The notes beneath the pieces are model-generated. The model made no database searches. It was not told the origin of the DNA and was given only the letters and a program-made list of their open reading frames with translations. A stretch of 64,000 nucleotides of DNA from positions 18-64,017 of the forward strand of contig CAZSIU010000001.1 in assembly GCA_964607225.1 (NCBI GenBank). The letters are read 5' to 3'. The DNA comes from an uncultured Methanosarcinales archaeon. Its GTDB lineage: Archaea > Nanobdellota > Nanobdellia > Woesearchaeales > GW2011-AR4. Positions within the stretch are counted from its first letter, which is position 1. Each line of letters starts with the position of its first letter. The position numbers were made by a program, and so were the translations under genes. Below, in pieces: positions 26,143-45,371 of the stretch.

Positions 26143-26799
26143 ATGATTAAAGCTGTTATTTTTGATGCTGGCGATGTGGTTTACTACAGGGATGAAGTAA
26201 CCTTAAAGCCTATGCTTGATTTTTTAAGGAAAAATGGCTTCAATATATCTGCAAAAGCATTCTTAAAAGCATATGACGCAAATTCACTGGCACTTTACAA
26301 AGGTAAAGTTTCAAAAGATGATAATCTAAAAAATGTATTAAAGTTTCTGAAAATAAGATTTAATGAGCAGTTTTTTGACAAATTTGCAAAAATTTTTAGA
26401 AAGAGTTTTTCTGATATTAAAATCAAAGAGAATGTCTATGAAATTTTTGAAAGAATTAAATCTAAGGGTATGAAAATAGCTGTTTTGACTGATACTTTTT
26501 CTTCAGAAGAAAAAAAATGGGAATGGTTTAAAAGCATCGATGTTGCGCAATTCATAGACATTATTGTATGTTCAAGTGTAACAGGATTTACAAAAGATAA
26601 AAAAGAAGCATATACAATAACGCTACAAAAATTAAATTTGAAGCCTAAAGAGGCTATTTTTGTTGGGCATAAAAAATATGAAATGACAGGCGCTAAGCTT
26701 GCTAACGTAAAATCTGTTTCATTGGAGAAAGACGCTGGCGCAGATTATTATGTCAGCTATATTTCTAATATTTTAAATTTGATTTATAAGCTTAATTAA
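26143..26799 (+). CDS. HAD-superfamily hydrolase/phosphatase
   Basis: IKAVIFDAGDVVY is HAD motif I (DxD), and VGHKKYEMTGA resembles motif IV. The start was trimmed to M37, where a proper ATG is present. Confidence 0.7.
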   Translation: MIKAVIFDAGDVVYYRDEVTLKPMLDFLRKNGFNISAKAFLKAYDANSLALYKGKVSKDDNLKNVLKFLKIRFNEQFFDKFAKIFRKSFSDIKIKENVYEIFERIKSKGMKIAVLTDTFSSEEKKWEWFKSIDVAQFIDIIVCSSVTGFTKDKKEAYTITLQKLNLKPKEAIFVGHKKYEMTGAKLANVKSVSLEKDAGADYYVSYISNILNLIYKLN

Positions 26800-27544
26800 A
26801 TTTTTTCTTTGCATTTTCCAGATCTTCCATTGTATCAATTTCAGCATAGTTTTTGCTGCTTGTATAAATTGGATATATTTTAAATCCTTTTTTAATAAAA
26901 TCCATCAATAAATACGAAGGAGAAGGGTATTTTTTGATCTCGCCACTTTTGATTAATTTAAAAATTCTGGCTTTGATTATTTGGATGCCTTTTCTGCTGA
27001 ATCTTGCCACTCCTATGTATTTGCCGCTTGTTTCATCATGCGATAAGCTCTTTGATATTTTTTTAACGAACCCTTTTGATATGTAAACTTTTGTATAGCC
27101 TTTTATTATTTTCATCCCTTTGTATTTTTCTATCAACTGCGGGTTTTCATCAAAATACTTCCCTTTTTCAATAGCAAGGCAAAAATCTTTTTTGCATCTT
27201 AATAGGCTCTTAACTATATCCGGCTTGAAAATTATGTCGCCATAGACTAAAATTGTTTCATCATTCAATTCATTTTTAGCTTTAAAAAGGCTTTCTAGCA
27301 GTCCTGTTGTCTCGTAATCTTTGTTTAGATAAAACTTGACATTTTTATTTCGTAATTTTTTCTTTACCCTATCAGCCTGATACCCTACCACGACACTTAT
27401 GTCATCAATTCTGTTCAACTTCAACGCATTGATTTGATGTTCTATTATGGGTTTGTTTTGAAGTTTTATCATGCATTTTGGCGTTCTCTGCCCTAGCCTT
27501 CCAAGCCTTTTCCCAGCTCCTGCTGCAAGTATTATTGCTTTCAT
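26792..27544 (-). CDS. LicC-like sugar/alcohol-phosphate nucleotidyltransferase (candidate phosphonate/phosphoalcohol cytidylyltransferase)
   Basis: MKAIILAAGAGKRLG...PKCMIKL matches the LicC/PntC-type NTP-transferase N-terminus. It is 250 aa. Confidence 0.7.
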   Translation of the reverse strand: MKAIILAAGAGKRLGRLGQRTPKCMIKLQNKPIIEHQINALKLNRIDDISVVVGYQADRVKKKLRNKNVKFYLNKDYETTGLLESLFKAKNELNDETILVYGDIIFKPDIVKSLLRCKKDFCLAIEKGKYFDENPQLIEKYKGMKIIKGYTKVYISKGFVKKISKSLSHDETSGKYIGVARFSRKGIQIIKARIFKLIKSGEIKKYPSPSYLLMDFIKKGFKIYPIYTSSKNYAEIDTMEDLENAKKKFN

Positions 27545-28179
27545 TTTATTTTATTTAGTATATCTTTCAATGCTTCTTCTGTTAGTTTTCTCGGGTTATT
27601 TTTTACTCTGTCTGGGTTAAACCCGTTTTTTATGATTATATTTATATCATTATCTGTTTTTATCCCTAAATCACTTAATTTTGTACTTAATCCTATATTT
27701 TCATTAAGGCTGTAATTCTTTTACTTGCATCTTCAATATTTTTTGCGTCGATAAAGCTAACAATTTCGTTTATATTTTTTAACATAATCAACACCTCTTT
27801 TGTCTAATAAATCTTGTTTTGTAACTTGTGAATTGTAAACAATCATAGGAGCAATTGTCAATGCAACTGCATGGCCATGAGGAACATTGAAATAGGATGT
27901 TATTGGATAAGAAATTGCATGACAAGCAGTTGTTTTTGTAATATTAATTGCATTTCCCAGTCCTGCATTTTGCATATAAACTAATCCAATTTTTCCAGTA
28001 GCAAGAGCAATTGCATTGCCTTCATTTGCAGCAATAATATGTTTTCGTCTTTTTGCATTATCCATTATATATGCGTTAAAGTCTTTAAGCAAAGAGTCAG
28101 GGACGCCAGTAAAAAAATCAATGCCATTTTTTACCAGATAATCGTAGATAGAACGTTGGCTATAAAGTGGATGGTGATT
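27545..28179 (-). pseudogene. Chimeric relic: the 5' part of ppd' (phosphonopyruvate decarboxylase, lacking its ATG) joined in-frame to the 3' part of adh', with a large internal deletion
   Basis: Positions 27958-28179 are about 75-80% identical to ppd 32161-32390. Positions 27776-27957 are 100% identical to adh 30363-30544. Positions 27545-27775 are a diverged copy of adh 30125-30362. The junction falls on an 8-bp 'gcatttcc' (GNA codons) shared by both genes. Confidence 0.8.
27776..27957. repeat. About 182-bp perfect direct repeat of adh 30363-30544 inside the relic
   Basis: The match is base for base, while the flanks have diverged. Confidence 0.85.
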
Positions 28180-28932
28180 TTATTCTCCGCCAGTAACATC
28201 AAGAATTGTGTTGGTAATAAACGTACTTCTTGGACCCGCAAGAAATAACACGGCATTTGATATTTCAAAAGGCTCGGCAAGTCTTTTTAACGGTATATAA
28301 TTAATACGAGCTGAAAGATCATTTCTACCTATCTTCTTATGAAAGGGAGTTTTTGTAGCACCTGGCCTAACAGCATTAACTAATACATTAAATGGAGCTC
28401 CTATCTTAGCAAAAGCTTTTGTTAAAGCTTCAAGAGCTGCCTTTGATGCACTATAATGCATAGTAGCTTCACCACCTCCATGTTGCCAGCCGCCGCTACT
28501 AATGTTTATGATCCGTCCATTACGCTTCTTAGACATAATAGAAAAAGCAGCACGGCTTAATAAAAATGGAGCTTTAAGATTCACTTGAAAGGTTCTATAC
28601 CATGCTTCTTCCGATAGGTTTTCAAAAGAAGTGGGCTTATAAACAAATCCGGCATTGTTGACTAATACATCGATACGCCCTTTACTCCACAATACAAATT
28701 TCTTCCACAGGGCATTAACTTCCTGAGAATTAACAAAATCTGACTTAAAAATTTTACATTGGTTATTCTTAGCGTATTTTAACAGCTTTCTTGCACCTTC
28801 CCTATTATCGCAATAATGAGCTCCTACAAAAGCTCCTTCTAAAAGAAAATCTTTGGCTATCTGAAATCCTATGCCACTACTTGAACCAGTAACAAGAATA
28901 TATTTATTTTCGAATTGCTTCTTGTCTTTCAT
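28180..28932 (-). CDS. Short-chain dehydrogenase/reductase (SDR)
   Basis: It has ILVTGSSSGIGFQIA (TGxxxGIG), NNAG and YSASKAALE (YxxxK). Confidence 0.85.
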   Translation of the reverse strand: MKDKKQFENKYILVTGSSSGIGFQIAKDFLLEGAFVGAHYCDNREGARKLLKYAKNNQCKIFKSDFVNSQEVNALWKKFVLWSKGRIDVLVNNAGFVYKPTSFENLSEEAWYRTFQVNLKAPFLLSRAAFSIMSKKRNGRIINISSGGWQHGGGEATMHYSASKAALEALTKAFAKIGAPFNVLVNAVRPGATKTPFHKKIGRNDLSARINYIPLKRLAEPFEISNAVLFLAGPRSTFITNTILDVTGGE

Positions 28933-29821
28933 AATAATCTTCCCATTTGCCTACAAATTCCCCACCCATCAACATTCCATTTGCATCGCAACTATTGCAT
29001 GGAATCTGATCTCGATCAGCCTTAGCTAATTTTACTCTAACCCGTTTCAATGTTTCACTATTCCAAATCTCTAAAATAGATTTTTCCTTAACATTGCCTA
29101 AAATCAATCTTTTATCCCAATCATGGGAGCATAGGACTACAGCACCGTCATAATCAATTAAAGTCTGATAAAATGGATAAAAACACTTCCTTTTAAGAGG
29201 GCTTTTTAGTTTTACTAAGCCAATATCTGGCATTATTTTTGCTCCTGCCCGATTAGAAAGTGTAATGCCAAAATGTTTCTCTGGTGTAAACCAACGTTGT
29301 CTTATACTGAACTGTTCATTACTTAAACCCGTTGCATCTCTCATCTCTTCAAAACGCTTTACTTTGTCTGGACCATCATAAACGCTAACGCCAATCTGAG
29401 TGAGACCCGCTGCAAAAAACTTATTAAGCTTCTCAACAGTTAGAAAATCACCATTAGTCACCATTTCAATCCGTACTTCTGGACAATATTGTTTGGATAA
29501 TCTTATTACTTCTTCTAAATGCCTATAAAGCAAAGGTTCGGAAAATGCAGAATAGAGTATATTTCCCTTGAATCCTACTTTGCTGAGGTCGGACATAACC
29601 TTTTCATACACTTCAATCTGAAGATGTTTATTGGTATTAGGCCAATTCGGATTACTGCGTGGGCAGAAACTACAAGTTCTATTGCATAAATCGCTAAGGT
29701 TGAATTCAATCCAAGAAAAAAGAGGGGGGTCATTTTTATTTACACGCTCTGGATCTTGGCCCTCCATGAATTTACTTTTGCGTGTTATATTTGGATCAAT
29801 AAAAATATATTTTCTTTCCAT
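28904..29821 (-). CDS. Radical SAM enzyme with C-terminal SPASM/twitch-like Cys cluster
   Basis: It has CNRTCSFC (CxxxCxxC), and the C-terminal region carries CFYPF...CSHDW...CNSCDANG. It is 305 aa. Confidence 0.75.
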   Translation of the reverse strand: MERKYIFIDPNITRKSKFMEGQDPERVNKNDPPLFSWIEFNLSDLCNRTCSFCPRSNPNWPNTNKHLQIEVYEKVMSDLSKVGFKGNILYSAFSEPLLYRHLEEVIRLSKQYCPEVRIEMVTNGDFLTVEKLNKFFAAGLTQIGVSVYDGPDKVKRFEEMRDATGLSNEQFSIRQRWFTPEKHFGITLSNRAGAKIMPDIGLVKLKSPLKRKCFYPFYQTLIDYDGAVVLCSHDWDKRLILGNVKEKSILEIWNSETLKRVRVKLAKADRDQIPCNSCDANGMLMGGEFVGKWEDYYERQEAIRK

Positions 29822-30124: not shown

Positions 30125-31276
30125 TCATCTTATTTCATACAAAATCCCTCTCAAAGTTTCTTCCGTCAATTTTCTCGGATTATTGTTAACCCTATCTGGA
30201 TTAAAACCATTCCTTATAATTATTTCTATATCTTCATCAGTTTCAATTCCCAATTCAGACAGCTTGGTACTTAAACCAATTTCTTTCATTAGGTTAGTTA
30301 TTTTTTCTGATGCTTCTTCAGCATTACTTGCACCAATTAATTCGACAATTTCTTTAATTGTGTTTTTAACATAATCAACACCTCTTTTGTCTAATAAATC
30401 TTGTTTTGTAACTTGTGAATTGTAAACAATCATAGGAGCAATTGTCAATGCAACTGCATGGCCATGAGGAACATTGAAATAGGATGTTATTGGATAAGAA
30501 ATTGCATGACAAGCAGTTGTTTTTGTAATATTAATTGCATTTCCAGCTAAATGAGCTGCTTTTGTCATTGTTCCTCTTGATATTTCTGAAGAATTATTCA
30601 CTGCTAATGGAATATTTTTAATAATAAGTTTGATTGCCTCTCTTGAATATTTTTTTGATTCGTCAGTTGAATTGATAGACCAGTATGATTCTATAGCTTG
30701 TGATAAAGCATCCATGCCGGTAAAAGCTGTTATATGTGCTGGCAGATTCATCGTAAATTGCGGGTCAACAATCGCATATTCAGGAATAATAAAATTATGG
30801 GTTAAAGTATATTTTACTTTGTCTTTGTATAAAACTGCATATCTTGTTGCTTCGCTGCCTGAACCAGAAGTTGTAGGTATAGCAACTGTAACTTTTCCTT
30901 TATTTTTTATTTTTGTTGGGTTGTTAATATATTCTATGAAAGACTTTTCTTCATTGCTAGCGAATAAATTAACAGCTTTTGCAATATCTAATGTAGTTCC
31001 ACCACCTACAGCTATAACAAAATCACAGTTATTCTTTTTAAATAATTCAAGCCCTTTCTTAATATCATCAAACTTTGGATTTACTTCAAATTCAGTAAAA
31101 TCGACAACATTGTAATTTCTTAGAATTTTGTTGAGTATCTTCTTTGCCCCACATTTTTCATAAGAATTCTTTCCAGTAACCAAAAAAATATTTTTAGGTT
31201 TATGTTTTAGTAATATGTTCCTCAAATTGTTTATAGAATTAAAACCAAAATATTCTTGCTGTCTCATTTTTATCAT
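30125..31276 (-). CDS. Group III iron-containing alcohol dehydrogenase (phosphonoacetaldehyde reductase-like, giving 2-hydroxyethylphosphonate)
   Basis: It has the GGGTTLDIAK motif of the Fe-ADH family and HGHAVALT metal-binding histidines. It is translationally coupled to ppd by an ATGA overlap. Confidence 0.8.
   Translation of the reverse strand: MIKMRQQEYFGFNSINNLRNILLKHKPKNIFLVTGKNSYEKCGAKKILNKILRNYNVVDFTEFEVNPKFDDIKKGLELFKKNNCDFVIAVGGGTTLDIAKAVNLFASNEEKSFIEYINNPTKIKNKGKVTVAIPTTSGSGSEATRYAVLYKDKVKYTLTHNFIIPEYAIVDPQFTMNLPAHITAFTGMDALSQAIESYWSINSTDESKKYSREAIKLIIKNIPLAVNNSSEISRGTMTKAAHLAGNAINITKTTACHAISYPITSYFNVPHGHAVALTIAPMIVYNSQVTKQDLLDKRGVDYVKNTIKEIVELIGASNAEEASEKITNLMKEIGLSTKLSELGIETDEDIEIIIRNGFNPDRVNNNPRKLTEETLRGILYEIR
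30363..30544. repeat. Partner copy of the 182-bp perfect repeat (inside the functional adh)
   Basis: See 27776-27957. Confidence 0.85.
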
Positions 31277-32388
31277 TGAAGAAATTTCATAAAATCTTCC
31301 TTATTCTCTATCGGCGTCTTAGTAGGCCTCCCCAAGTTTTTCCTAGCACCTTTATTTATTATTACTTCTAATAAAATAGGTCCTTCCATTTTACTCATTT
31401 TTCCTACTTTATCAATTATTTCTTCTTTTGTCTCTGCTGAAAAAGCATCTTTATAGCCACAAGCTTTTGCAATCTTAGGAATATTAATATTAAATGCGGC
31501 AGTTGGCTGCCCCCCAACAGAATCGTGAGCATAATTATTAAATACAATATGTTTGAAATTTTTTGGTTTAAGTTGTCCAATTATTGCTAACGCCCCCATA
31601 TGCATAATTAAGGCTCCATCTCCATCAAAACAATAAACGTCTCTATCAGATTTTTTAAGTGCGATTCCCAAGGCAATAGAGGAAGAATGTCCCATACTTC
31701 CCACTGTGAGAAAATCTTTTTCGTGCCCTTGCTTAGTTGCTTCTCTTAGCTCAAAAAGCTCTCTTGACGTTTTTCCTGTAGTTGAAACTACAATATCATC
31801 ATCATGTAGCAGTGGGGCGATGATTTTTATAGCCTCTTCCCTGTTTAATTCATAATTTGTTTTTATTTTATTTTTTAGTTTATATTCCTGGAAAGTTCCT
31901 TTACTGACAACTATTGCATATGGTGATTTTTTATTTTTCATATAATTAATCGCTTCCTTTATTGTATCTTCATAACTATCTTCTAATATTTTATAAGGTA
32001 TTTCCAATGTATCTAATAATTTTAGTGTAATCTTGCCCATCTTAACATGTTGAGGTTCATCTTTTTTTCCTGGCTCGCTTCTCCAACCTATAATAAGTAA
32101 CATGGGTATTGAATAAACATCTGGATCAGCAAGCGACGTAAGAGGATTTACAGCATTTCCTTCTCCGGAATTCTGCATATAAACCAATCCAAACCTCCTA
32201 GTAGCTAGATGATATCCTGCTGCAAGTGCAACTGCATTACCTTCATTAGCTGCAATAATATTTCTTTCATCTGGTGTATTATCAGCAACATAAGCACAAA
32301 AATCTTTAAGTAGAGAATCTGGGACTCCAGTAAAAAAATCAATTTTATTTTCTATTAGTTTATCATAAAAATTTTTACAAGATATCAT
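31273..32388 (-). CDS. ppd: Phosphonopyruvate decarboxylase (thiamine-diphosphate dependent)
   Basis: The N-terminus MISCKNFYDKLIENKIDFFTGVPDSLL and GDGALIMHMGAL (TPP-binding GDG) are present. It lies immediately downstream of the PEP mutase. Confidence 0.85.
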   Translation of the reverse strand: MISCKNFYDKLIENKIDFFTGVPDSLLKDFCAYVADNTPDERNIIAANEGNAVALAAGYHLATRRFGLVYMQNSGEGNAVNPLTSLADPDVYSIPMLLIIGWRSEPGKKDEPQHVKMGKITLKLLDTLEIPYKILEDSYEDTIKEAINYMKNKKSPYAIVVSKGTFQEYKLKNKIKTNYELNREEAIKIIAPLLHDDDIVVSTTGKTSRELFELREATKQGHEKDFLTVGSMGHSSSIALGIALKKSDRDVYCFDGDGALIMHMGALAIIGQLKPKNFKHIVFNNYAHDSVGGQPTAAFNINIPKIAKACGYKDAFSAETKEEIIDKVGKMSKMEGPILLEVIINKGARKNLGRPTKTPIENKEDFMKFLQ

Positions 32389-32414
32389 TTTAAGCTCAAA
32401 AATTTATTATAGCC

Positions 32415-33713
32415 TCATTTACTTCCTGGAATTAATGTGAGCACTTCATTTATTGGCAAGCAATATTTATCTGCTTCATGACATCTTCCGTGTTTCAATA
32501 TAGTTTCTGCTGTTTTTATCATGGCAGGATATGCACTTCTCAGCAAATGATTTGCATAAATTACAATATTTACGCCAGCGTCAATTAATTCTTGCTCTGT
32601 AATAGTGTTATACGTTGTTGGTACTACAACCAAAGGAGCCTTATTCTTAATTTTCTTATATTCTTCACAAAAATCTAAAACTTCTTTTGTATCTTTTTCC
32701 TTGCTATGAATCATTATTCCATCCGCACCTGCATCAATGTAAGCTTTCGCTCTTTTTATTGCGTCATCTACCCCTTTTTTTAATATCAAGCTTTCTATCC
32801 TAGCTATAATCATAAAGTCTTCATTAACCTGAGCTTTTTTTCCTGCCGTTATTTTTCGACAAAAATTTTCTATTGAATCTTGTTGCTGCTCAACTTCTGT
32901 TCCATAAAGTGAATTTCTCTTTGGACCGATTTTATCTTCTATAATCACAGCAGATACTCCAATCCTCTCCAGAGTCTTGACTGTATATACAAAATGCTCA
33001 GCTAAACCACCTGTGTCTCCATCTACAATCATAGGTTTGGTAGTTACCTCAAAAATATTATCTATTGTTTGAAGTCTTGATGTTAAATCTACCAATTCAA
33101 TATCTGGCTTACCTTTGGAAGTCGAATCTGTCAAGCTGCTTTGCCACATTCCGTCAAATTCCCTTACATTATCGTCTTCAACCAATTTGATTTTTTCCAC
33201 TATTCTTCCGGTAAGTCCATTATGAACTTCCATAATCCTTACTAAGGGTTTAAGTTGAAGCAATTTTCTTAATCTCTTAAGTCTAACCTCTGGAGTAGTC
33301 CCTATGTCACTCATTTTATCAATCAATTCTGATGCGGAAACATCCCTTGTAGATTCAGGCTCTACTAGCTTACCGCCCCACTCTTTAAGATATTCTATTA
33401 CTCTTGCTCTAACTCCTTTTTGAATACCTGTTCGCCAGTCTGTGCCGTGTATAACATAGTCTGGCTTAAGTTTTTTAAGGTTGGGGACATAGTCTAAGGT
33501 TTCCTGGGGTATAACTTCACTTACACCCTTAATGTTTTCTATTATTTTTTTCCTCTGTTCGTATGTCAGGAGTGGAAGCCTTTTATAAGTGGCAATAGCC
33601 TCATCTGTCAATAATCCTACAGTTACATTTCCCAATTTTCTTGCTACTTCTATAATATTTATATGTCCATGATGAATTATATCAGTGCTCATTCCTACAT
33701 AAACTTTTTTCAT
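32415..33713 (-). CDS. pepM: Bifunctional N-terminal HxGH cytidylyltransferase / C-terminal phosphoenolpyruvate phosphomutase (Fom1-like architecture)
   Basis: The N-domain reads [13 protein letters not shown]. The C-domain carries [10 protein letters not shown] at residues 259-268, which matches the PepM-specific EDKxxxxxNS motif exactly, plus VDGDTGG. Confidence 0.88.
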
Positions 33714-33716
33714 TTT

Positions 33717-34256
33717 TTAATTCTCCTTTTTGTAAATCTTAATGATTTTATTGACGATGTTCTCAGTTGACAATTTTTCATAGAATGGTGGTTGTATAAC
33801 TTCCCCGTTGATTTTTTTAATATATTTAGCCCCGGGGACTTTTTTCCAGTTTGAACCACAAACTAGAATTAATTTTGCATTTTGAAATTGCTCATGAATT
33901 TTTTTTAAATTTGCTGTAGGATCCAAAGAGTTCTGAACCATAACCATATCTATACATCTAAGAGATGAAACTATGGACTTTCTATCTTTTAAACTAGCAA
34001 TTGGAGCTTCCCTATATGATTTAATTGCATCGTCAGTTAAAACACCACAAACATGAAAATCCCCAAGCTGATTTGCAATCAGCAACGATCTAAGTTGTCC
34101 GTAATGAAAAAGATCTCCTGTAGTAGAACTATAAACGACAGAGTTAATTTTATCTTTTTCAACAGCTACAATATCTCCTTCTTTAATTCCAGAGCCTTTA
34201 GGTATTGTAACACATAACTGACCATTAGATTTATTCGCCCACACTACTTTTTTCAT
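33717..34256 (-). CDS. Small-barrel domain plus TagD-like cytidylyltransferase domain protein
   Basis: TGDLFHYGQLRSLLIANQLGDFHVCGVLTDD aligns to the (H/F)xGH-type CTP-transferase core. Confidence 0.55.
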   Translation of the reverse strand: MKKVVWANKSNGQLCVTIPKGSGIKEGDIVAVEKDKINSVVYSSTTGDLFHYGQLRSLLIANQLGDFHVCGVLTDDAIKSYREAPIASLKDRKSIVSSLRCIDMVMVQNSLDPTANLKKIHEQFQNAKLILVCGSNWKKVPGAKYIKKINGEVIQPPFYEKLSTENIVNKIIKIYKKEN

Positions 34257-35105
34257 TTTCTACTAGTGTTACTAGTGATTGTATTTAAATGTTTCGGTTT
34301 TTATCTGGATTGAAAAGACTCTTTTGATTTCAAATATTGATATATAATATTGATTAAATTGCTACCATATAGAATTATTTTTGTTTGTAATTTTTTTTAT
34401 TTAATTGTGAATAAACTAAAATAATTTCTAGAATTTACACCCATCAAGATCTCTTTTGTCATTTTTACTCATTTTTCATTTCTTTGTTTTTCCCAGACCT
34501 TAACAAAAAAATTTCAACTTCTCAAATAATATCTGTTTTAATTTAACTAATTTGGTAGAAAATGAAAAAAGGCTTATAGAGGCTGGAGTTGCATGTCCAG
34601 TAAATGTTGTTAGGATAGTAGACAAAGAAAAAAATGAAGATATTGTAAGCGTAAAAGTTAGTTAGGATAAAGTCAAAGAAGTTATTGCTGAATATGATCA
34701 TGAAAAGGAATTTGTTATTGATTCAGAAGGTTATTTTTGAATAAGGTTAGACAGAAAAAACAAAAATATAGAGGTTGGTTTCTGCAATGAAAAAAAATAA
34801 GGTTGTTTTAAAAGTTGTTGGCAAAAAGCCAATTGATATTTATCAAACTATATTAAACAAAGAAAAGTTGTCGATAAGGAAAGACCATGCAGCTTATCTT
34901 GGGGAGAATTGCAAAACGCTTATTTTGCTTTGGAATATAATTTAGAATATGTTCAAGATGATGGTGCGGATTTAAATAAGAAATTTAATGAAAAATTTTT
35001 TAAATTCGTTATTTATAGTTAATTGTGATGTATTAAGCTTGTTTTTAATTTATTCTTAAAGAATTTATGAAAATTATTTATGATGAATAATAAAAATTGT
35101 TATAT

Positions 35106-36341
35106 TTAAAACCACCTTGTTGATTCTGTATGGACTCTTTCCAGGCCCTCCTGTCCTGAATACTTGTATATTAATGCAAGATCTTTTAATGGGTCTCCCT
35201 CTTCAGGTTTGATTTCCATTACGATTAATTTTCCTTCCTTATCACCAGTATTCCTAAATGAGTGAGGTACATTTGGTTGAATAAAAAAAGAAGTGCCTGG
35301 TTTCAATATTTGCTCATTACTTCTCCAGAGAAACATAACTGGAGTGTTTCCAACATTATAACCCCAACGGTCTGCATCCACGTTAATATCTAATGTTCTT
35401 TCTTCCTTCACTCTTTTAACAATATATTCAAATGCTTTCGTATGGGGTTGATTTGGGATTCCATTAATTAGTTCTCTCCACTTATAAGCATCATTCTCTT
35501 TTGAGGAGGCATCTTTATTTTTTCTCACTATTACACCCTCAAGTTCATCTGTAACTAGGTTTTCTTCAACTTTGGGTAATTTTTTCTTATAAGAGGATTG
35601 ATAATCATCAAGATCCATAGATTTTATTTTTGTCTGAAATTCATCTGTCGCAACTGCTCCTCCATAAGTAACCGCAAGAATCAATCCCTTTCCCTCTTCA
35701 CGTGTAGTAAAAGTATGAGGAACAAATGGCGTAATATAATTGATGTCTCCAGTATTCATTTTCCGCACGTGTTTATTGCCTTTTTTGTCAATCCAGTAAA
35801 AATTTACCGTCCCAATGAAATAAGTAATTTGATATTCAAAATGGCCTTTGTTAAATGCCCAATCAGGTACATTTGCGTCATTTCCATCATGGACGTAGCG
35901 CTCCACGATCCATTCGGGCCTGAAAGTAGATGTCTTTGACATTGCAGTGTCTCCATAATCATAATATGGAACTTTTTGGCCGTCACTCTGACCCCTCATA
36001 AATGTTCGTTGAGTTTCCTTCCTTTGTTCAGCAGTAAAAATAAGAACACCGTCATTTGTATCATCTTTAATTTTAAACTTATGCCTATGATTAGGATCAA
36101 ATAATTTACGTACATCCAAAGGAGAATGATTATCTACTGCATTAACAATTTCTGATGTTAGGGGTTTTTTCCCGTTCATAACTGCTTCAAGGTAAACTGG
36201 GTCTAAATTGTGTATATCAGCAAAACTAATTGAAGTTTGTTTTACTCCATTTAAAAGGCCTCTGAGTATTGGTCCAGCATTTTTAGCATAAGGGACGTCA
36301 GAAAAATTTTTATTTTCTCTTACTTCCATTTTTTGTTCCAT
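35106..36341 (-). CDS. mpnS: Bi-cupin 2-hydroxyethylphosphonate dioxygenase family; residue pattern favours methylphosphonate synthase (MPnS) over HEPD
   Basis: It has two cupin modules (…PFVPHTF… and …PNVPHSF…). The first-cupin triad is H167-x3-Q171...H209 (2-His-1-Gln). F sits 14 residues and I 36 residues downstream of the first His, matching the Phe162/Ile184 gate recalled for N. maritimus MPnS; HEPD has Tyr/Gly there. A GGAGGT Shine-Dalgarno sequence lies 8 nt upstream. Confidence 0.7.
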   Translation of the reverse strand: MEQKMEVRENKNFSDVPYAKNAGPILRGLLNGVKQTSISFADIHNLDPVYLEAVMNGKKPLTSEIVNAVDNHSPLDVRKLFDPNHRHKFKIKDDTNDGVLIFTAEQRKETQRTFMRGQSDGQKVPYYDYGDTAMSKTSTFRPEWIVERYVHDGNDANVPDWAFNKGHFEYQITYFIGTVNFYWIDKKGNKHVRKMNTGDINYITPFVPHTFTTREEGKGLILAVTYGGAVATDEFQTKIKSMDLDDYQSSYKKKLPKVEENLVTDELEGVIVRKNKDASSKENDAYKWRELINGIPNQPHTKAFEYIVKRVKEERTLDINVDADRWGYNVGNTPVMFLWRSNEQILKPGTSFFIQPNVPHSFRNTGDKEGKLIVMEIKPEEGDPLKDLALIYKYSGQEGLERVHTESTRWF

Positions 36342-36349
36342 TTAAAATT

Positions 36350-36355
36350 ACCTCC
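36350..36355 (-). promoter_or_regulatory. Shine-Dalgarno-like GGAGGT, 8 nt upstream of the mpnS-like start
   Basis: Forward-strand acctcc at 36350-36355. Confidence 0.4.
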
Positions 36356-36459
36356 GAAAATTTAGATATTGCACATAAATCTTAATAAGAATGCCATATT
36401 ATTTATAAATATTTCACCGAAAGGCTTAAATATAATAATTTGGGGTTAGAAGACGAAAT

Positions 36460-37239
36460 TTAACTTATTTCTCCTCCAACTCTTAAGAAATCCTGCACAG
36501 TATCAAATTCTTTCCAATTTTTTTGTATTAAAACGCAATAAAGTTTTTCTCCTTTATCTATCATTTCTTGGAAAATATCAGTTATATAGGATTTTTGCCA
36601 TTCTTTTGCATTTTGATACGGATCGGTCATTTTTAATGTTGAATTTAGTCTGTCAAAATATTTTAAGAAAATATTTATTCCTTTAGGGGTAAACTTCCAT
36701 AAGCCGATAAATTCACCTTGTTTATTTTTTGGTACTTTATAAGTAAATATGTGCTTGCCAATCTTTAGCATTCTTTTTTTGTCATTCATTATTATATTTT
36801 CAGCTTCTGAAATTGGATGGTGAGTTCTGCCTTCATAATAATCTTGCCAATCTATATCAACAATAGCAGCTATATCATTTTTATCTTCTAATAATTTCTT
36901 TACCACAATATCATTGTACCATATATCTGAATAACTTATAACGACATCTTCTTTTGATTTTATGGCTTCTTCTAATTTAGCTCTGGCGCACATCAAAGAA
37001 TGAAGAATGTTATTATTCCAGAAATCTGCATTTTCAAAATATGTAATGTTTGTAAAATTTATCTTTTCTTTTTTATAGCCTCTTACTATTGAAATATCTT
37101 CAATTTCATTTTTTCTAAAAAGATCTATAGTATTCTCTAGTATCGGCTTGCCCTCTATCTTCAGCATACATTTTGGCAAGTTATCCGTTATTGGCCTTAG
37201 ACGTGAAGATGGTCCAGCAGCGATGATAATTCCTTTCAT
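36460..37239 (-). CDS. LicC-like nucleotidyltransferase (second copy; candidate phosphonate cytidylyltransferase)
   Basis: MKGIIIAAGPSSRLRPITDNLPKCMLKI is paralogous to 26792-27544. Confidence 0.7.
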   Translation of the reverse strand: MKGIIIAAGPSSRLRPITDNLPKCMLKIEGKPILENTIDLFRKNEIEDISIVRGYKKEKINFTNITYFENADFWNNNILHSLMCARAKLEEAIKSKEDVVISYSDIWYNDIVVKKLLEDKNDIAAIVDIDWQDYYEGRTHHPISEAENIIMNDKKRMLKIGKHIFTYKVPKNKQGEFIGLWKFTPKGINIFLKYFDRLNSTLKMTDPYQNAKEWQKSYITDIFQEMIDKGEKLYCVLIQKNWKEFDTVQDFLRVGGEIS

Positions 37240-37345
37240 ATGACTAACTTGTTTTATCCCAAGTTTACTTAATTTTATTTATAAATCTTTTACCGATAGG
37301 TTTAAATACTATAAATTCGAATTATTTAATAAAGTCTCTTTAGTT

Positions 37346-38209
37346 TTAGAAACTCATTTTTATTTCGTTTTTTCCTCTTAGAAGAAATTCTTTCAAAAAA
37401 GTTATTATCTCATCATCCAATCTTCTTAAGAATTCCGCTTCCCTATCCACTCTCATATATTTTTTTTCACCTAAATAAGTAAATAATTCCCTTATAGAAA
37501 AATCGACAGTCCCATAATTGATAAATGGTCTTCCCATTTCTCCAATCTTTATTACCATTGCTTTGATCATGGCCACTGGATTTAATTTTTTATCAAGCAA
37601 TTTTTCTTTTAGCAGTCTTCTCTGTACAATCATTGGGAAGGTGTTTAAATCAAATTTTATATTCCATACTTTGCTTTTTAATATTTTTTCTCTAAAATTA
37701 AAATTGAATTCCTTGTTTTGTTGTCTTTCCTTGAAAGCAAAAAAATCTATATTATCCCAAAACTCCCAATTTCCTGAGCAAATTGATGAGTGAGGCAAAA
37801 AGAATTGTACTGGTCTTATAAATGTATCAAAATAAATATGGCTTATAAAACTTAAAGTTGCATGTACTTTATTTTGTTCTATCTTCTTTAGTCCTTCGTA
37901 TTTAATCAATTCACAAGCATTATTAAAAAAGTTTATAAATTTTTCTTGATTTTTTTTGATATGCATGTAATAAGATGTATTTTTTGAAAATTTTAGTTTT
38001 TGGTTTGTGAAGACTGCCATTGCAGAGTCTAAAATTTTTGGAAGATTATGTAGATTATGTGTGTATATTTCGAGCTCTTTTCCCAGCAGCGGAATAAAAG
38101 AGTAAATAGCAGAATTTATATCGCAATCACATGCTTTAAGTAATTTTATACTTAATATTCCTCTTGTTAATTCATCCATTTTTAACCTTGTTTTTGCATT
38201 TCTTCCCAT
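37346..38209 (-). CDS. Hypothetical protein (287 aa), no recognisable family; overlaps the downstream AP-family gene by 28 nt
   Basis: It is a long ORF inside a co-directional operon. The start is possibly at M11 (MDELTRG). Confidence 0.45.
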   Translation of the reverse strand: MGRNAKTRLKMDELTRGILSIKLLKACDCDINSAIYSFIPLLGKELEIYTHNLHNLPKILDSAMAVFTNQKLKFSKNTSYYMHIKKNQEKFINFFNNACELIKYEGLKKIEQNKVHATLSFISHIYFDTFIRPVQFFLPHSSICSGNWEFWDNIDFFAFKERQQNKEFNFNFREKILKSKVWNIKFDLNTFPMIVQRRLLKEKLLDKKLNPVAMIKAMVIKIGEMGRPFINYGTVDFSIRELFTYLGEKKYMRVDREAEFLRRLDDEIITFLKEFLLRGKNEIKMSF

Positions 38210-39306
38210 AAATATTTTTCTATTTTAGGTTCCTGTCCTATTAAATTATTTTTTTCTTCTTTGTCATCAATGAGATTATACAATTCTTTCTTTTTATTTG
38301 TCTCATTATATATTAATTTCCACTTGTTTGTTCTCACAGCTTTGATGTTATGTTTCTCTGGAGAAGGCGTTGGTCCATCTAAACCCCCTGTTTCAGAGTA
38401 AGCGACTCTATTTTCTATTATTCCCTTAATAAATGGTAAAAATGATTTTCCACCTATCTTTTTATAATTATCCTCTTCCTTTATTTTTAGTATGTCCAAT
38501 AAAGTTGGTAAAATATCAATACTTCTAATTAAATTATTTATTTGCAGATTTTTAGGAAAGTCCTTTCCAATTAAATATAAAAAGCTTCTTATTGTGTACT
38601 CATAGAGATAAACACCATATGCCCTTTCTCCAACTTTGTCTCCAGTACTGGTCCCATGATCAGTACAAACAAATATAATAGAATCATCATGCAATCCTAA
38701 TTGCTTTATTTTTTCCATAATATCTTTAAGATAATTTGCGCTTTCCCCAACCCATCCAAGGTAATTCTTGAAATTTTTATCTTTATTATTGAAATACTCC
38801 TCATCAAAATCAGAGTATTTTTTTACTACGGTGTTGATCAAATTAACATGTATACTTCCATATCGAAGAAAGAGGAAAAAAGGATTTTTATGTCTTATTT
38901 GGTGCAATATTTCAGTGTGCCTTTTTGAGAAGTTTATATCCTTAAACTCGTCATAAATTCTATATTTATCAAATCCTTGTTGAGGTATGACCCCTTCAAG
39001 ATGTAAATCTGCTTCGGTGTAATAACCATTTTCTTTTACATATTGGGTTAATGTAAAACAATTTTTTTTATCAAAACTATGAATTCTGTAATAACCATTT
39101 ACGCCGTTGAAATTACCATTCATTCCAGAAAATAAGGAGTGTAAAGAAGCTATAGTATATGGTGCGTAGGTAATTAATTTAGGGAAAAAAACAGATTCTT
39201 TTTTGAGTTCTTGGTAATATCGAATTTTATCAATAGAGTCGTACCTAACCCCATCTATAACTATAATTATGATATTTGGTTTTTTTTTCTTAAATAGATT
39301 AATCAT
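38182..39306 (-). CDS. Alkaline-phosphatase-superfamily enzyme (NPP/PhnA/sulfatase-like), cytoplasmic
   Basis: IIVIDGVRYDS (a DGxRxD metal site) and YTIASLHSLFSG resemble the T-x-P-x-H-x-S-x-x-TG nucleophile loop. There is no TM segment and no signal peptide. Confidence 0.65.
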   Translation of the reverse strand: MINLFKKKKPNIIIIVIDGVRYDSIDKIRYYQELKKESVFFPKLITYAPYTIASLHSLFSGMNGNFNGVNGYYRIHSFDKKNCFTLTQYVKENGYYTEADLHLEGVIPQQGFDKYRIYDEFKDINFSKRHTEILHQIRHKNPFFLFLRYGSIHVNLINTVVKKYSDFDEEYFNNKDKNFKNYLGWVGESANYLKDIMEKIKQLGLHDDSIIFVCTDHGTSTGDKVGERAYGVYLYEYTIRSFLYLIGKDFPKNLQINNLIRSIDILPTLLDILKIKEEDNYKKIGGKSFLPFIKGIIENRVAYSETGGLDGPTPSPEKHNIKAVRTNKWKLIYNETNKKKELYNLIDDKEEKNNLIGQEPKIEKYLWEEMQKQG

Positions 39307-39355
39307 TTTTTATATAGTTGAATAATTTAATTATATATAATTTTATTTTAGACTA

Positions 39356-40717
39356 TTAATTTATATATCCTGCTTTCCTCAGAGTTTCTCTTGATTTCTC
39401 AGTAAGATCTGACAAGTTAGTTTGTCCCTCATTGCTTTGTGGTTTTAAAAATTCTAAGATTTTATCTTTCATATAAGAAGCCCTTTCTTTTTCCTTATCA
39501 ATAAGATTATTCTGTTCATTTGGATCATTCGTTAGATTATAGAGCTCAAAAATGTCTTTTTCTGGATGGGGTATATATATAATTTTCCAATCTCCTTCTA
39601 TCATAGCTCTCCATTTTCCCTTGACGCCTGGAAAAAAAATCCTTTTATTTTCCTTAAAGATCTCTTCCATACTTTCAGCAAAAATAAATTTTACTTTATT
39701 TTTTGAATTATTATTAATCAAAGGTAATAAGCTTACTCCGTCGATTTTATCCAATACCGGGATATTAAGCATTTCCAATATGGTTGGCATTATATCCAGT
39801 AGTCTAACTCTTTCTTTAATAACTTTACATCCATCAAAGAATTTCGGATAATTAAATATTAATGGAACTCTTAGGCTTGGTTCGTAAAGTGAAGATCCAT
39901 GTAAAAAATAAAAATTATGTTCTCCAAAATTTTCTCCATGATCAGATGTTAAAATAATTAATGTGTTATCATCTAGACTTTTGGACTTTACAAAATCAAT
40001 TAATCTTCCAAAATGTAAATCAGTATATTTTATACTACCATCGTAATGTGCGATAGCATGACTAATTTCTTCTTTATGAAATTTAATATGACCATACATA
40101 AGTTCCCCCCTAGAAAATTTACCGTGTTTTAAAGTATTAAAATCATGATTTCCTTTATAATTTGGATCAAACGTATGATCATAGGGCTTTGGGATTTCAT
40201 ACGGCCAGTGCATATCATCGAAATGCAGGCATAAGAAAAACTTCTTTTTTGAGTTTTTTTTAATCCATTTAATTGCTACATCTATATATTGCTCGGTAGA
40301 ACTCATAAAATTTCTTGGATTTAGCACTTTTTTTAAGCCTCTCTTAATTTTATTTTTGATTTTCCATGATAGCAAATTAAATTTTTTAAATCCCTTTCTT
40401 AAAGGAGGTTCGTATAATCCAGCGTTGCCCATAAAAGCTGTTTCATATCCATGATTAATAAGTATTTCAGGTAAATGTGTAAAGGAAAAATTTAGATTAT
40501 CATTTTTAACCAACCTTATACCATGAGTGTGTGGATATAATCCAGTAAAAAGAGACATTAGAGAAGGATTTGTTCTTGGTAAAGAAGTGTAAGCATTTAG
40601 AAAACTTGTACCTTGCCTGTAAAAATTATCAATATTTGGACTGGTATTTCTATTATAACCATTTACACTTAAATGATCTGGTCGTAAAGAATCTATTATA
40701 ATTAAAATAATATTCAT
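39356..40717 (-). CDS. Alkaline-phosphatase-superfamily enzyme (sulfatase/NPP-like), cytoplasmic
   Basis: It has IIIDSLRPDHL. SLMSLFTGLYPHTHGI matches the NPP-type ...TGLYPESHGI loop. The canonical sulfatase C/S-x-P-x-R motif is absent. Confidence 0.65.
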   Translation of the reverse strand: MNIILIIIDSLRPDHLSVNGYNRNTSPNIDNFYRQGTSFLNAYTSLPRTNPSLMSLFTGLYPHTHGIRLVKNDNLNFSFTHLPEILINHGYETAFMGNAGLYEPPLRKGFKKFNLLSWKIKNKIKRGLKKVLNPRNFMSSTEQYIDVAIKWIKKNSKKKFFLCLHFDDMHWPYEIPKPYDHTFDPNYKGNHDFNTLKHGKFSRGELMYGHIKFHKEEISHAIAHYDGSIKYTDLHFGRLIDFVKSKSLDDNTLIILTSDHGENFGEHNFYFLHGSSLYEPSLRVPLIFNYPKFFDGCKVIKERVRLLDIMPTILEMLNIPVLDKIDGVSLLPLINNNSKNKVKFIFAESMEEIFKENKRIFFPGVKGKWRAMIEGDWKIIYIPHPEKDIFELYNLTNDPNEQNNLIDKEKERASYMKDKILEFLKPQSNEGQTNLSDLTEKSRETLRKAGYIN

Positions 40718-40862
40718 TTTACGGCAGAATAGAATATCATTTTATATAGTTTTTTGTTTTTCCTGTTTTCATTATCAAAAACAGTTTCCCAAATAGTATA
40801 TTTCATTTATTTATACAGATATATCAACAGATAATTTAAAAAGGTAGGCAAATACACCATTA

Positions 40863-41735
40863 TTGATGAAAAATAAAAAAATCACTTATAAAGAAGTAAG
40901 AGCTATACAGAAAGAGGATATACGCGCAAATAGAATAATATATAGTCATAACAGACATTTTTCTTCTCCATTTACTTATATTTTTATCAAGTTAGGAATT
41001 TCGCCAAACACTATAACAACATTTAATTTTTTTATTCCCATATTAGGATTTATATTTTTATCTTTAGGCACATATCTATCTATTATTGTTGGAATACTTT
41101 TTTTTAATTTATTTTTTATATTTGACCAATCAGATGGAGAAGCTGCAAGACTGCAAAATAGAGGAAGTATTGAGGGGATTTATTTGGATATAATAAACCA
41201 TTACATTTATGGTTGTTGTATAGGATTAGGATTAGGATACGGTCTATCCAGATTATACCATAATGAAATTTATATTGTTCTGGGATTTATCTTAACGCTC
41301 ATTTTTGTTTTGGAATACGCTATTCCGCATGTCCTAAATTCCATAGTTGTGAAGGGGTTGATAGATAATAAGACTTATGATAAAATTGAATCCGTTGATA
41401 AAGTTAGAAAGCTATTGGATAGGTATATTTACGGTGGGCGTTCTTGGGCAAACAGCAACATAATTTCAAAATTAGTAGGAATATACCCATTCCAAGGTCT
41501 GATTTTTTCAGTTCACTTTATACTTCCAATAATATTGATGTTAACTTTGATGGAAATTTTCTTAAGTGCTTCATTTGAATTCCCAATTCTTATTTATGGT
41601 TTGAATATTGGATTAATATCTTCATATTTATTTGTGCTCGCCACATCAAAAATAATCTGGATTATTGGCTATATTTCAAGAATAGTAAGAAATAGGCTTA
41701 TAACTAAATTTTTGATGGCTAGCAAAGATTCTTAA
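40863..41735 (+). CDS. CDP-alcohol phosphotransferase family membrane protein
   Basis: DQSDGEAARLQNRGSIEGIYLDIINH matches D-G-x2-A-R-x8-G-x3-D-x3-(D/H). It has multiple TM helices. Confidence 0.75.
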   Translation: MMKNKKITYKEVRAIQKEDIRANRIIYSHNRHFSSPFTYIFIKLGISPNTITTFNFFIPILGFIFLSLGTYLSIIVGILFFNLFFIFDQSDGEAARLQNRGSIEGIYLDIINHYIYGCCIGLGLGYGLSRLYHNEIYIVLGFILTLIFVLEYAIPHVLNSIVVKGLIDNKTYDKIESVDKVRKLLDRYIYGGRSWANSNIISKLVGIYPFQGLIFSVHFILPIILMLTLMEIFLSASFEFPILIYGLNIGLISSYLFVLATSKIIWIIGYISRIVRNRLITKFLMASKDS

Positions 41736-41808
41736 TGCTAGAAATCTATATAATTTGAATTATATTTCAATTATTTTAAAACAATAAGCAAGGAGAAATC
41801 TTGCCGAA

Positions 41809-42927
41809 ATGCATATGGTTAAACCTAAAAAAATAAGAATTTTAGTAGTAGCTGAAAAATATGATGATTTCTATGAATGGCTCTCAAAGTTATTAGAAAA
41901 AGAATTTATTGTCAAAAAGCTTTATGTGCATTCAGGTGATGAAAAGCCTCCTTTCTTCCTGTTAAGATGGCTATTGGTGATTAAAAGATGGAGAAGCATA
42001 TCAAAGAGCTTCAAGCCGGAAAAAATTCTTGTATATGGGAAATCCTTGATGTCTATATGGATCGTCATTTTCTTAATTAGACTACTTGGACTAAACACAG
42101 AGATAATAATTTTTAGGTATGATTTTGAATATTTTTGGATGTGTTTTAAGGAGATTAAAAAAACAATTGGTGATAGGATGACTCTAATACTAGAAAAATT
42201 TTGTTTAATTAATTCAGATAAGATAGTTCACAAAGGCATAGAAAATGAGTTAGAGTTTTTACCATATTACGATAAACTAAAGAATAAACCGCACTATTTA
42301 TTCAGAGAATTTATTAATCCAAAAAAAATTCAGATTTATAATCCTAATTTTAAATTATCAAAGAAAGATGGCGAAATACATCTAGTGTACATAGGTGGTT
42401 TTACATCTGTAAATTTACCTGTTGCGGAGTCTATCTGGAATTTCTACCCAAAAATCACAAGCCAGAGACTACATCTGCACTTATACTCCTGGTTTGACAG
42501 AAAGGCAGAAGAAAAATTAAAGGAAATTGAAAATAGAAATCCTTATCTTCATCTTGAAGGAATTAAAGATCATAGTTCGCTTTTAAAAGAGATATGTAAA
42601 TATGACTACGGCATAAGCCTACACACTCGAAATGTTTCCAAGTCAAAAAACAACTATTATGTAGCTGTGCATTTCGCAAAAAAGTTTTTTGATTACCTGT
42701 CTGCAAAATTACCTTTAGTTGTCCTGAAGGAATCAAAGGCTGCTGCAGAATTTGTAGATAAGTACAAGATTGGGGTATGTATAGACTATAAAGATATTAA
42801 ATCTTTACAAAAAATTTTGACTAAAAAAAAGAAAGACTATGAAAAAATTATCAAAAACATCGACAATGCCATTTCAGACTCAATGGAGTGCAAAAAATTT
42901 CTTGATTTTGTAAGAACTCAGAAGTAG
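41809..42927 (+). CDS. Hypothetical protein, possibly a GT-B-like glycosyltransferase
   Basis: The layout is two-domain Rossmann-like (…IRILVV… / …HLVYIGGFTS…). No diagnostic motif is present. Confidence 0.35.
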   Translation: MHMVKPKKIRILVVAEKYDDFYEWLSKLLEKEFIVKKLYVHSGDEKPPFFLLRWLLVIKRWRSISKSFKPEKILVYGKSLMSIWIVIFLIRLLGLNTEIIIFRYDFEYFWMCFKEIKKTIGDRMTLILEKFCLINSDKIVHKGIENELEFLPYYDKLKNKPHYLFREFINPKKIQIYNPNFKLSKKDGEIHLVYIGGFTSVNLPVAESIWNFYPKITSQRLHLHLYSWFDRKAEEKLKEIENRNPYLHLEGIKDHSSLLKEICKYDYGISLHTRNVSKSKNNYYVAVHFAKKFFDYLSAKLPLVVLKESKAAAEFVDKYKIGVCIDYKDIKSLQKILTKKKKDYEKIIKNIDNAISDSMECKKFLDFVRTQK

Positions 42928-42933
42928 GGATTG

Positions 42934-44751: not shown

Positions 44752-44798
44752 ACTGTAGGGATTAAAAAATCAGTTTAAAAATGTTGTCATTAATCCTT

Positions 44799-45350
44799 CT
44801 ATTTTATTGCAATCACAAAATAAAAGAAAGGCAATTCTCTCTTGCCATAATGTTCAACCTTAAGGTTTCTGAAAATTGAAAATAGCTTTCTCAGAGAATG
44901 TTCTGTAAAGCGCCAATAATCATGAGGCTCGTCATGTAATGGATAGAGAGCAGGCACGAGAACTATGAGCTTTCCATTTTTATTCAATGCCTTATGAAGC
45001 ATCTTAATTCCCTTATGGAAATCAAATACATGCTCTATTACATTAAAGCAAACAATGACATCATATCCTTTAGGTATTTTTTTTGTTATGTCTACTATAG
45101 GATGCTTATATGCAGGGTCTATGTCAGATTTCACAACTTCATTGCCTCTATTCTTAAAAAAGTCAGCAACAGAATATATATGCCTTCCTCTGATGGCTTT
45201 GCCTGAGCCGATTTCAAGAATTTTTTTGCCTCTTATGTTTGAGCAGTATTTCACCAAAATTTTGTTCTTGGCTCTTCCTGGTTGAAAGGCTATGTGGGAG
45301 AGTGAGCGGAAAATGCTCTTTTTGAGTGACATGAACGTGTTTAGACACAA
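44799..45350 (-). CDS. Class I SAM methyltransferase
   Basis: It has ILEIGSGKA and a methyltransferase type 11-like fold. Confidence 0.65.
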   Translation of the reverse strand: MCLNTFMSLKKSIFRSLSHIAFQPGRAKNKILVKYCSNIRGKKILEIGSGKAIRGRHIYSVADFFKNRGNEVVKSDIDPAYKHPIVDITKKIPKGYDVIVCFNVIEHVFDFHKGIKMLHKALNKNGKLIVLVPALYPLHDEPHDYWRFTEHSLRKLFSIFRNLKVEHYGKRELPFFYFVIAIK

Positions 45351-45371
45351 ATACTATTTAAAATTTTTTAG

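Follow-up and report, generated by a model that had tools for sequence, protein, structure and literature searches.

The question raised by this locus is whether an archaeon makes methylphosphonate and, if so, by which enzyme. The locus lies in a stretch of 64,000 nucleotides of contig CAZSIU010000001.1. This whole stretch is referred to as the window. All positions given below are positions within it, and the phosphonate genes are all on its minus strand. An earlier note, made from the letters alone, had described four genes as a complete core for the biosynthesis of 2-hydroxyethylphosphonate (2-HEP) and methylphosphonate, ending in a bi-cupin dioxygenase with residues typical of methylphosphonate synthase (MPnS). 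We read the locus as a phosphonate cell-surface decoration cluster of a Woesearchaeota-type DPANN archaeon from groundwater, with MPnS-type cleavage of 2-HEP, and assign a probability of roughly 0.7 to this reading. The genes and motifs which carry it are the following.

35106..36341, minus strand: MPnS-like bi-cupin Fe(II)/O2 dioxygenase, 411 residues, with a match to PDB entry 6b9s; a member of the short 'HEQ' clade described below.
35715..35843, minus strand: active-site segment of the bi-cupin protein with H167, E169, Q171, F181, I203 and H209 (positions checked by script and by alignment to the MPnS from Nitrosopumilus maritimus).
32415..33713, minus strand: bifunctional cytidylyltransferase-phosphoenolpyruvate (PEP) mutase with a Fom1-like architecture, 432 residues (PF01467, PF13714 and TIGR02320).
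32910..32939, minus strand: signature EDKxxxxxNS of PEP mutase (PepM), residues 259-268 (checked by script).
31273..32388, minus strand: phosphonopyruvate decarboxylase (Ppd), a thiamine diphosphate (ThDP) enzyme, 371 residues (TIGR03297).
30125..31276, minus strand: group III iron-type alcohol dehydrogenase (Fe-ADH), 383 residues (Pfam Fe-ADH/ADH_Fe_C), a candidate phosphonoacetaldehyde reductase.

The limits of these four open reading frames (ORFs) and their shared strand are exactly as first described, and the four genes lie within 6.2 kb. The pathway genes are all present, but they do not form an uninterrupted four-gene core. The bi-cupin and PepM genes are parted by a 179-residue ORF (34256..33717) and an 850-bp stretch (34257-35105), and the cluster is part of a larger glycan island (see below).

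The family assignments exceed chance by a wide margin, and the first two pathway steps are well covered by family models. The PepM domain scored 419.8 bits with TIGR02320 (cut-off 319.55); the second-best model, phosphonopyruvate hydrolase, scored 161 bits versus 374. The motif EDKxxxxxNS is used as a discriminator for PepM (PMC6697681; bioRxiv 2020.11.04.368217). It is found at the residues initially claimed for it and, the TIGR02320 cut-off being passed, it is in register, so that the mis-alignment raised as a concern did not materialize. It occurs as late as residue 259 because an N-terminal cytidylyltransferase domain, missed by the earlier note, precedes the mutase (PF01467 at residues 11-102, PF13714 at residues 148-406). 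The HxGH motif of this domain is visible as HHGH. The same arrangement, an N-terminal PF01467 domain followed by a PepM domain with EDKxxxxxNS, is found in Fom1-type fusions, which have been well documented. PF01467 is fused to 23.6% of the Ppm enzymes, and the domain in Fom1 makes the cytidine monophosphate (CMP) conjugate CMP-HEP (PMC6697681). None of the fosfomycin genes Fom3, Fom4 and FomC was identified among the genes of the cluster, which is set in a glycan island and not in an antibiotic cluster. Ppd scored 508.7 bits with TIGR03297 (cut-off 312.5) and has both ThDP domains (PF02776, TPP_enzyme_N; PF02775, TPP_enzyme_C).

The third step is assigned from the conserved gene neighborhood. 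The 383-residue protein matches PF00465 (Fe-ADH, E 1.5e-41) and PF25137 (ADH_Fe_C, E 1.2e-37), and a homolog is encoded near the dioxygenase gene in 31 of the 38 loci of the MPnS family. It would be the phosphonoacetaldehyde reductase that makes 2-HEP. The route from PEP via phosphonopyruvate and phosphonoacetaldehyde to 2-HEP, as initially proposed, is thus supported, with its last step resting on context. At residues ~195-205, the dehydrogenase has a Gln in place of the second metal-binding His of lactaldehyde-reductase-type enzymes (GMDALSQAIE). We rejected the interpretation as a defect, as the closest solved relative, a methanol dehydrogenase (6jko), has the same Ser-Gln; this appears to be a trait of the subfamily.

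The best solved match of the bi-cupin protein is MPnS from N. maritimus (6b9s/6b9t, E 2.4e-59 by phmmer, with both halves covered), followed by hydroxyethylphosphonate dioxygenase (HEPD) from Streptomyces albus (6b9r, E 5.8e-35) and by HppE (E 2.3e-4). In the HMMER alignment, H167, Q171, F181, I203 and H209, all present in the protein as described, pair with H148, Q152, F162, I184 and H190 of N. maritimus MPnS, the numbering given in the earlier note. In an alignment of 81 sequences, H167, Q171 and H209 are invariant, and in a set of 121 aligned sequences (120 homologs plus the window protein), 115 show the pattern HQ-F-I-H. According to the literature (Born 2017, cited in PMC11978286), MPnS is recognized by a 2-His-1-Gln triad together with Phe/Ile.

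Class II HEPD from S. albus belongs to the same family, has the His/Gln/His positions and also uses 2-HEP, which it converts to hydroxymethylphosphonate and formate. It has Q153 and, at the gate, Tyr163/Gly184, in contrast to F181/I203 in the window protein, with which it shares 24% identity (Foldseek). The gate contrast between the two enzyme types had been correctly anticipated, and the window protein has neither the Tyr and Gly around the Gln nor a Glu at the gate positions. Class I HEPD (PhpD from Streptomyces viridochromogenes, 3G7D) shares the overall bi-cupin fold. Its identity is, however, only 15%, and there was no match to it in the sequence search at E 0.01. The triad of PhpD is 2-His-1-Glu; its Glu precedes the second His by six residues and so corresponds in position to I203. 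HppE (1ZZ6) has a homologous cupin with a His at the same position, but it has only a single cupin, a Glu at H+4 (His-x3-Glu...His) and no Phe/Ile gate (HGEMVH vs HEQFIH), and it differs in substrate and chemistry. The window protein has Gln at H+4 and two cupins.

The resemblance to N. maritimus MPnS (6B9S/6B9T) extends beyond the triad and the gate, which are in register. K34, R116, Y129 and N164 align with K28, R102, Y110 and N145 of that enzyme, which we take to be the positions contacting 2-HEP. All four are invariant in an alignment of 24 sequences from the short clade. Three of them (K34, Y129 and N164) also show no variation among the 81 aligned sequences, in at least 90% of which R116 is conserved. 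An AlphaFold2 model of the 411-residue protein, built with 81 homologs, has a pLDDT of 93.8 and a pTM of 0.92. From the N-terminus, it shows a helical domain, the iron-binding cupin 1, a helical linker of reduced size, cupin 2 and, at the C-terminus, a helix. Foldseek ranks 6b9s/6b9t (E ~1e-35) before 6b9r (1e-28) and PhpD (3g7d, 3.6e-18). By sequence and predicted structure, the protein is a homologous bi-cupin of the HEPD/MPnS family.

In the proposed pathway, the first two steps are evident from the sequence: PepM converts PEP to phosphonopyruvate, which the ThDP-dependent decarboxylase turns into phosphonoacetaldehyde. The Fe-ADH, by context, would reduce this to 2-HEP. Judged by its residues, the bi-cupin protein would hold Fe(II) with H167, Q171 and H209, and F181 and I203 would pack against the Gln. 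Acting as an MPnS, it would use O2 to break 2-HEP between C1 and C2, yielding methylphosphonate and CO2. A nucleotidyltransferase encoded directly upstream of the dioxygenase gene, the PepM-fused domain, or both would turn the phosphonate(s) into CMP conjugates, from which transferases of the glycan island would then decorate a surface glycan, a glycoprotein or a lipid. The chemistry is probably conventional.

The family to which the dioxygenase belongs is, however, split into two groups. In a search of 5.8 billion proteins, one set of homologs (P0001-P0068) is 40-100% identical to the window protein. The full-length members of this short clade have 366-434 residues, except for one fusion protein of 623 residues. 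The remaining homologs (P0069 onward) are of the canonical MPnS type, have 451-473 residues, usually with a helix-turn-helix Pfam match, and are 31-34% identical (41% in one case, with partial coverage). The mean identity of the short clade to other family members is 31%. The Phe/Ile pair is the majority state in the family as a whole and is almost uniform in the short clade; Tyr/Gly is restricted to sub-groups of the long forms. The 411-residue protein has no NCBIfam match, and NCBIfam has no model naming the short clade.

Several points weigh against an MPnS assignment. With canonical MPnS, the window protein shares only ~30-32% identity. It has 411 residues versus 457 in the N. maritimus enzyme (~30% identity by Foldseek), and the global superposition of the model on 6b9s reached a TM-score of only 0.57-0.62. 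In an unrooted neighbor-joining tree from the full-length alignment of 89 sequences, the short clade is separated from all other members in 99.5% of 200 bootstraps. The window protein does not group with biochemically characterized MPnS; the other side of the split holds characterized MPnS as well as class II HEPD. Rooting with an HppE fragment (141 columns) gave the short clade 59% support but all other members only 5.5%, too little to place the root; we therefore claim only the unrooted split. The inter-cupin segment is ~63 residues shorter in the short group (median 67) than in the other sequences (median 130), and the model has just three short helices there (residues 228-254). Each member of the short clade has a Glu at H+2 (E169), which is Met150 in N. 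maritimus MPnS and Leu in S. albus HEPD. E169 is two residues away from each of two iron ligands. Lying on the strand between them, it should, from cupin geometry, face the metal pocket and could alter iron coordination or product partitioning. Our literature search found no assayed or characterized member of the short clade. Upstream in the pathway, the Fe-ADH reached no NCBIfam equivalog cut-off (183.5 bits with TIGR03405, Phn_Fe-ADH, versus 423.7), which is why its role is assigned from context only. Finally, the predicted dioxygenase requires O2.

On these comparisons, the window enzyme is a member of a shorter sister lineage and not an ortholog of the solved MPnS and HEPD structures that were aligned. 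The Phe/Ile rule, reportedly based on mutagenesis by Born and coworkers, was established outside this lineage. Methylphosphonate as the product of the 411-residue enzyme is thus an extrapolation, though a likely one. The conclusion that the locus must "therefore" make methylphosphonate was overstated: the Phe/Ile residues fit, but the separate clade, the low identity and the Glu at H+2 call for more caution. A Glu at H+2 is also present in a few long forms outside the short clade (L034, from Prochlorococcus sp. AG-409-M05; P0133; P0157), so the change from Met/Leu to Glu arose more than once.

One might also see in the short Glu169 lineage a fourth branch of the HppE/HEPD/MPnS family with a function of its own. 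Its unvarying Glu flanked by the His and Gln ligands, its missing second helical domain and its repeated pairing, or even fusion, with a nucleotidyltransferase (see below) could then result in another substrate (e.g., CMP-2-HEP) or a third product outcome. We consider this unlikely. If true, DPANN archaea and bacteria of the candidate phyla radiation (CPR) would have an undescribed phosphonate surface chemistry.

A narrower view is that the bi-cupin protein does act on 2-HEP but releases hydroxymethylphosphonate and formate, as HEPD does, or a mixture of products. E169 or the shortened architecture would then alter the hold on formate and the methylphosphonate radical. That the short clade stands apart from all enzymes with a known product, and that E169 replaces Met/Leu without exception within it, fits this view. 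The Foldseek matches also list 4yar, the ligand variant E176H of HEPD, in which the product outcome is said to be shifted, so that partitioning would be sensitive to the ligand sphere. Both gate positions are, however, Phe/Ile and not Tyr/Gly, all Tyr/Gly sequences are outside of the short clade, and MPnS is the better match in both sequence and fold. We therefore rate a different product as quite improbable.

The same low chance is given to a third view, by which the true substrate is a nucleotide-activated or attached phosphonate, e.g., CMP-2-HEP from the Fom1-like domain, which would be converted to CMP-methylphosphonate or another conjugate. The PF01467 domain on PepM is suggestive, since its counterpart in Fom1 makes CMP-HEP (PMC6697681). 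In addition, ~20 of the 38 related loci have a homolog of the directly upstream 259-residue NTP_transferase within ~1 kb ahead of MPnS. Nature has even fused the two: P0014, the 623-residue protein from an ENA metagenome, consists of an NTP_transferase part (40% identical to the 259-residue protein over its full length) and a short-clade dioxygenase, in the same order as in the window. Placement and fusion support a coupling of the nucleotidyltransferase to the dioxygenase, and the 259-residue protein may activate the phosphonate as a nucleotide conjugate. The same neighbor is, however, also present in canonical MPnS loci, so that the linkage is not specific for the short clade. Furthermore, MPnS was crystallized with free 2-HEP (6b9t), and the residues at the phosphonate-contact positions of that enzyme are conserved.

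We thus retain cleavage of free 2-HEP by an MPnS-type enzyme and turn to the host. The host is most probably a Woesearchaeota-type DPANN archaeon, because of the relatives of a flanking protein and the identities to archaeal loci. The flanking gene codes for a membrane protein of 605 residues with 860 relatives; all those carrying a name among the best 120 are from Woesearchaeota, Nanoarchaeota or an unclassified archaeon (61-71% identity). For PepM, Ppd, Fe-ADH and the nucleotidyltransferase, the best matches are from archaeal loci (L001-L003), and these proteins are 61-79% identical to archaeal (DPANN) loci versus 26-65% to CPR loci. A CPR bacterial host was also considered. It was judged less likely, since the neighbors are closer to the DPANN loci and all named relatives of the 605-residue protein are archaeal. 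Scans of the window and of L042 for tRNAs and Rfam families returned no rRNA, tRNA or other Rfam feature, so that RNA provides no taxonomic marker here.

A Logan contig matches positions 30515-45456 of the window (14.9 kb) with 100% identity; its run, SRR8863434, belongs to a groundwater project from Ohio (Greene County; PRJNA512237, PMC11549363). The probable DPANN host contrasts with N. maritimus, which is a marine ammonia oxidizer. With DPANN-type relatives and identity to a groundwater contig, the connection to the oceanic methane paradox drawn in the earlier note is not a direct one.

We surveyed the hosts of the short clade in GTDB contigs, with one genome per species. The genes occur in metagenome-assembled genomes (MAGs) labeled Methanosarcinales archaeon (59% identity), Woesearchaeota (55%, a RIFCSP isolate) and Nanoarchaeota (51%), and in others labeled Patescibacteria (48%), Saccharibacteria (46%) and Nomurabacteria (44%). 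Some of these MAGs derive from aquifers. PepM, Ppd and Fe-ADH genes are found, in some combination, beside short-clade genes in five loci (L001, L002, L003, L005 and L006). In L004, a 16.9 kb locus of a Patescibacteria MAG, no homolog of PepM, Ppd, Fe-ADH or the nucleotidyltransferases of the window is detectable from 10 kb upstream to ~5.6 kb downstream of the short-clade gene, in contrast to the other short-clade loci.

Sequences of this type have been encountered before. Among the 'MPnS-like' sequences from Alberta groundwater reported by Li et al. 2025 (PMC11978286), some share GHFEHQ...FHW...YIVPFVPHTF and the short linker with the window protein, e.g., unbinned_C4_g0007.c0043.00468. That study applied the same residue rule and classed them as MPnS-like (PMC11978286); in its accessible text, they are neither singled out as a clade, nor assigned to DPANN or CPR organisms, nor assayed. 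Our literature search found no paper that ties genes for phosphonates or MPnS to members of the DPANN or CPR.

Overall, the system is of a known kind, a 2-HEP/methylphosphonate cluster for surface decoration, but its key enzyme is structurally and phylogenetically distinct, and its host and habitat are unexpected. In oxygenated water, C-P lyase releases methane from methylphosphonate. Most of the known biological sources of methylphosphonate belong to the marine Thaumarchaeota or the SAR11-type bacteria (PMC9381506). In the groundwater study, C-P lyase was expressed, MPnS was found in only three samples, and the question about the origin of methylphosphonate was raised (PMC11978286). The short clade is a candidate source in aquifers. 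If this lineage makes methylphosphonate, the Woesearchaeota/Nanoarchaeota and Patescibacteria/CPR MAGs would represent an overlooked source, and phosphonate-decorated surfaces would be a trait of episymbiotic ultra-small cells. The short clade is also a natural test for the reach of the Phe/Ile rule, and it would provide a smaller scaffold for the MPnS-type reaction.

The setting of the cluster is consistent with surface decoration. The window consists almost wholly of genes for glycan biosynthesis (glycosyltransferases, sugar dehydratases/epimerases, Wzx-type flippases, PMT_2 proteins, methyltransferases and radical SAM enzymes). The phosphonate genes are embedded in this 64-kb glycan island together with nucleotidyltransferases, sulfatase-family genes and a CDP-alcohol transferase. 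The cluster of N. maritimus likewise has PepM, Ppd, Fe-ADH, nucleotidyltransferase and sulfatase-family genes, and arylsulfatase-type neighbors are reported at known MPnS clusters (PMC9381506). The neighborhood is of the type known from N. maritimus and from further loci with MPnS (PMC9381506). The features around and within the cluster are the following.

40863..41735, plus strand: membrane protein of the CDP-alcohol phosphatidyltransferase family (PF01066, E 9e-8), a candidate transferase for CMP-activated phosphonate.
37346..40717, minus strand: upstream co-directional genes coding for a hypothetical protein of 287 residues and two sulfatase/phosphodiesterase-family proteins of 374 and 453 residues (PF00884 for the sulfatase pair).
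36460..37239, minus strand: NTP_transferase, LicC/PntC-like, 259 residues (PF00483/PF12804), directly upstream of and adjoining the dioxygenase gene.
34257..35105, plus strand: 850-bp spacer with a decayed PterinBD-DUF4346 pseudogene on the opposite strand (PF14251).
33717..34256, minus strand: cytidylyltransferase-like protein, 179 residues, with a degenerate HxGH (HYGQ) (PF01467, E 1.2e-6).
28904..29821, minus strand: downstream co-directional radical SAM/SPASM protein (PF04055 and PF13186), with a possible tailoring role.
28180..28932, minus strand: short-chain dehydrogenase/reductase (SDR), overlapping the radical SAM gene (PF13561/PF00106).
27560..28130, minus strand: chimeric remnant of a second ppd-adh copy (nucleotide comparison with the functional ppd and adh genes).
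26792..27544, minus strand: second NTP_transferase, 250 residues, beside an APH-type kinase and a HAD hydrolase (domain matches).

The CDP-alcohol transferase-like protein may be the one that transfers the CMP-activated phosphonate. The 287-residue hypothetical protein is 70% identical to the product of a gene in a Nanoarchaeota locus (L003). The 179-residue protein resembles domain II of RfaE, far below the model cut-off, and has a 74% identical homolog in a Woesearchaeota locus (L002). It has HYGQ at the HxGH nucleotide-binding site and is extended by ~40 residues at the N-terminus; it might be a paralog of the PepM-fused domain that is altered or not catalytic.

Downstream of the core, the radical SAM/SPASM protein has 38-42% identical homologs near MPnS in three loci (L011, L012 and L021), two of which (L012 and L021) also have homologs of the SDR. 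Taken together, the homologs of this pair are 30-42% identical and are encoded a few kb from canonical MPnS genes in MAGs of Rhodospirillaceae/Rhodospirillales, which hints at a conserved tailoring pair. Two further radical SAM genes are located ~15 kb from the phosphonate core, one coding for a B12-binding protein (13957-15510, minus strand) and the other at 15851-17164 (plus strand). The former has a weak similarity, far below the cut-offs, to P-methyltransferase families (PhpK and Sden_1168 types). A scan for promoters and terminators returned sites no more often than in shuffled sequence; it models sigma-70 promoters, which are irrelevant for an archaeon.

Two pseudogene remnants are present in or beside the cluster. 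The spacer (34257-35105) has a GC content of 24.5% and no ORF longer than 56 residues. When three plus-strand frames were stitched over two stops and two frameshifts, PF14251 matched with 52.6 bits (E 8e-14). The spacer is identical in an independent contig (L039). The remnant at 27560-28130 consists of ~70 codons of a diverged Ppd N-terminus (69% nucleotide identity; corresponding to 32140-32388), fused at a GGAAATGC microhomology to an ADH C-terminus (corresponding to 30125-30560), which is frameshifted further downstream. That the whole cluster is decaying and the dioxygenase step is non-functional in the host, as these remnants and the degenerate HxGH of the 179-residue protein might suggest, is very improbable, given that the five core ORFs are all complete and retain their motifs, that the window protein keeps all clade-invariant residues, that its AlphaFold2 model is very confident, and that the locus is identical in independently assembled contigs.

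Within the chimeric remnant, ~181 nt (27777-27957) match the functional ADH gene (30364-30544) with 100% identity, and the flanks are 69-84% identical, which suggests gene conversion or recent recombination. The Logan contig (L039) stops at window position 30515, inside one copy of this repeat, and a 108-kb ENA contig (ERZ27284378) stops, by extrapolation, near 27914, inside the other.

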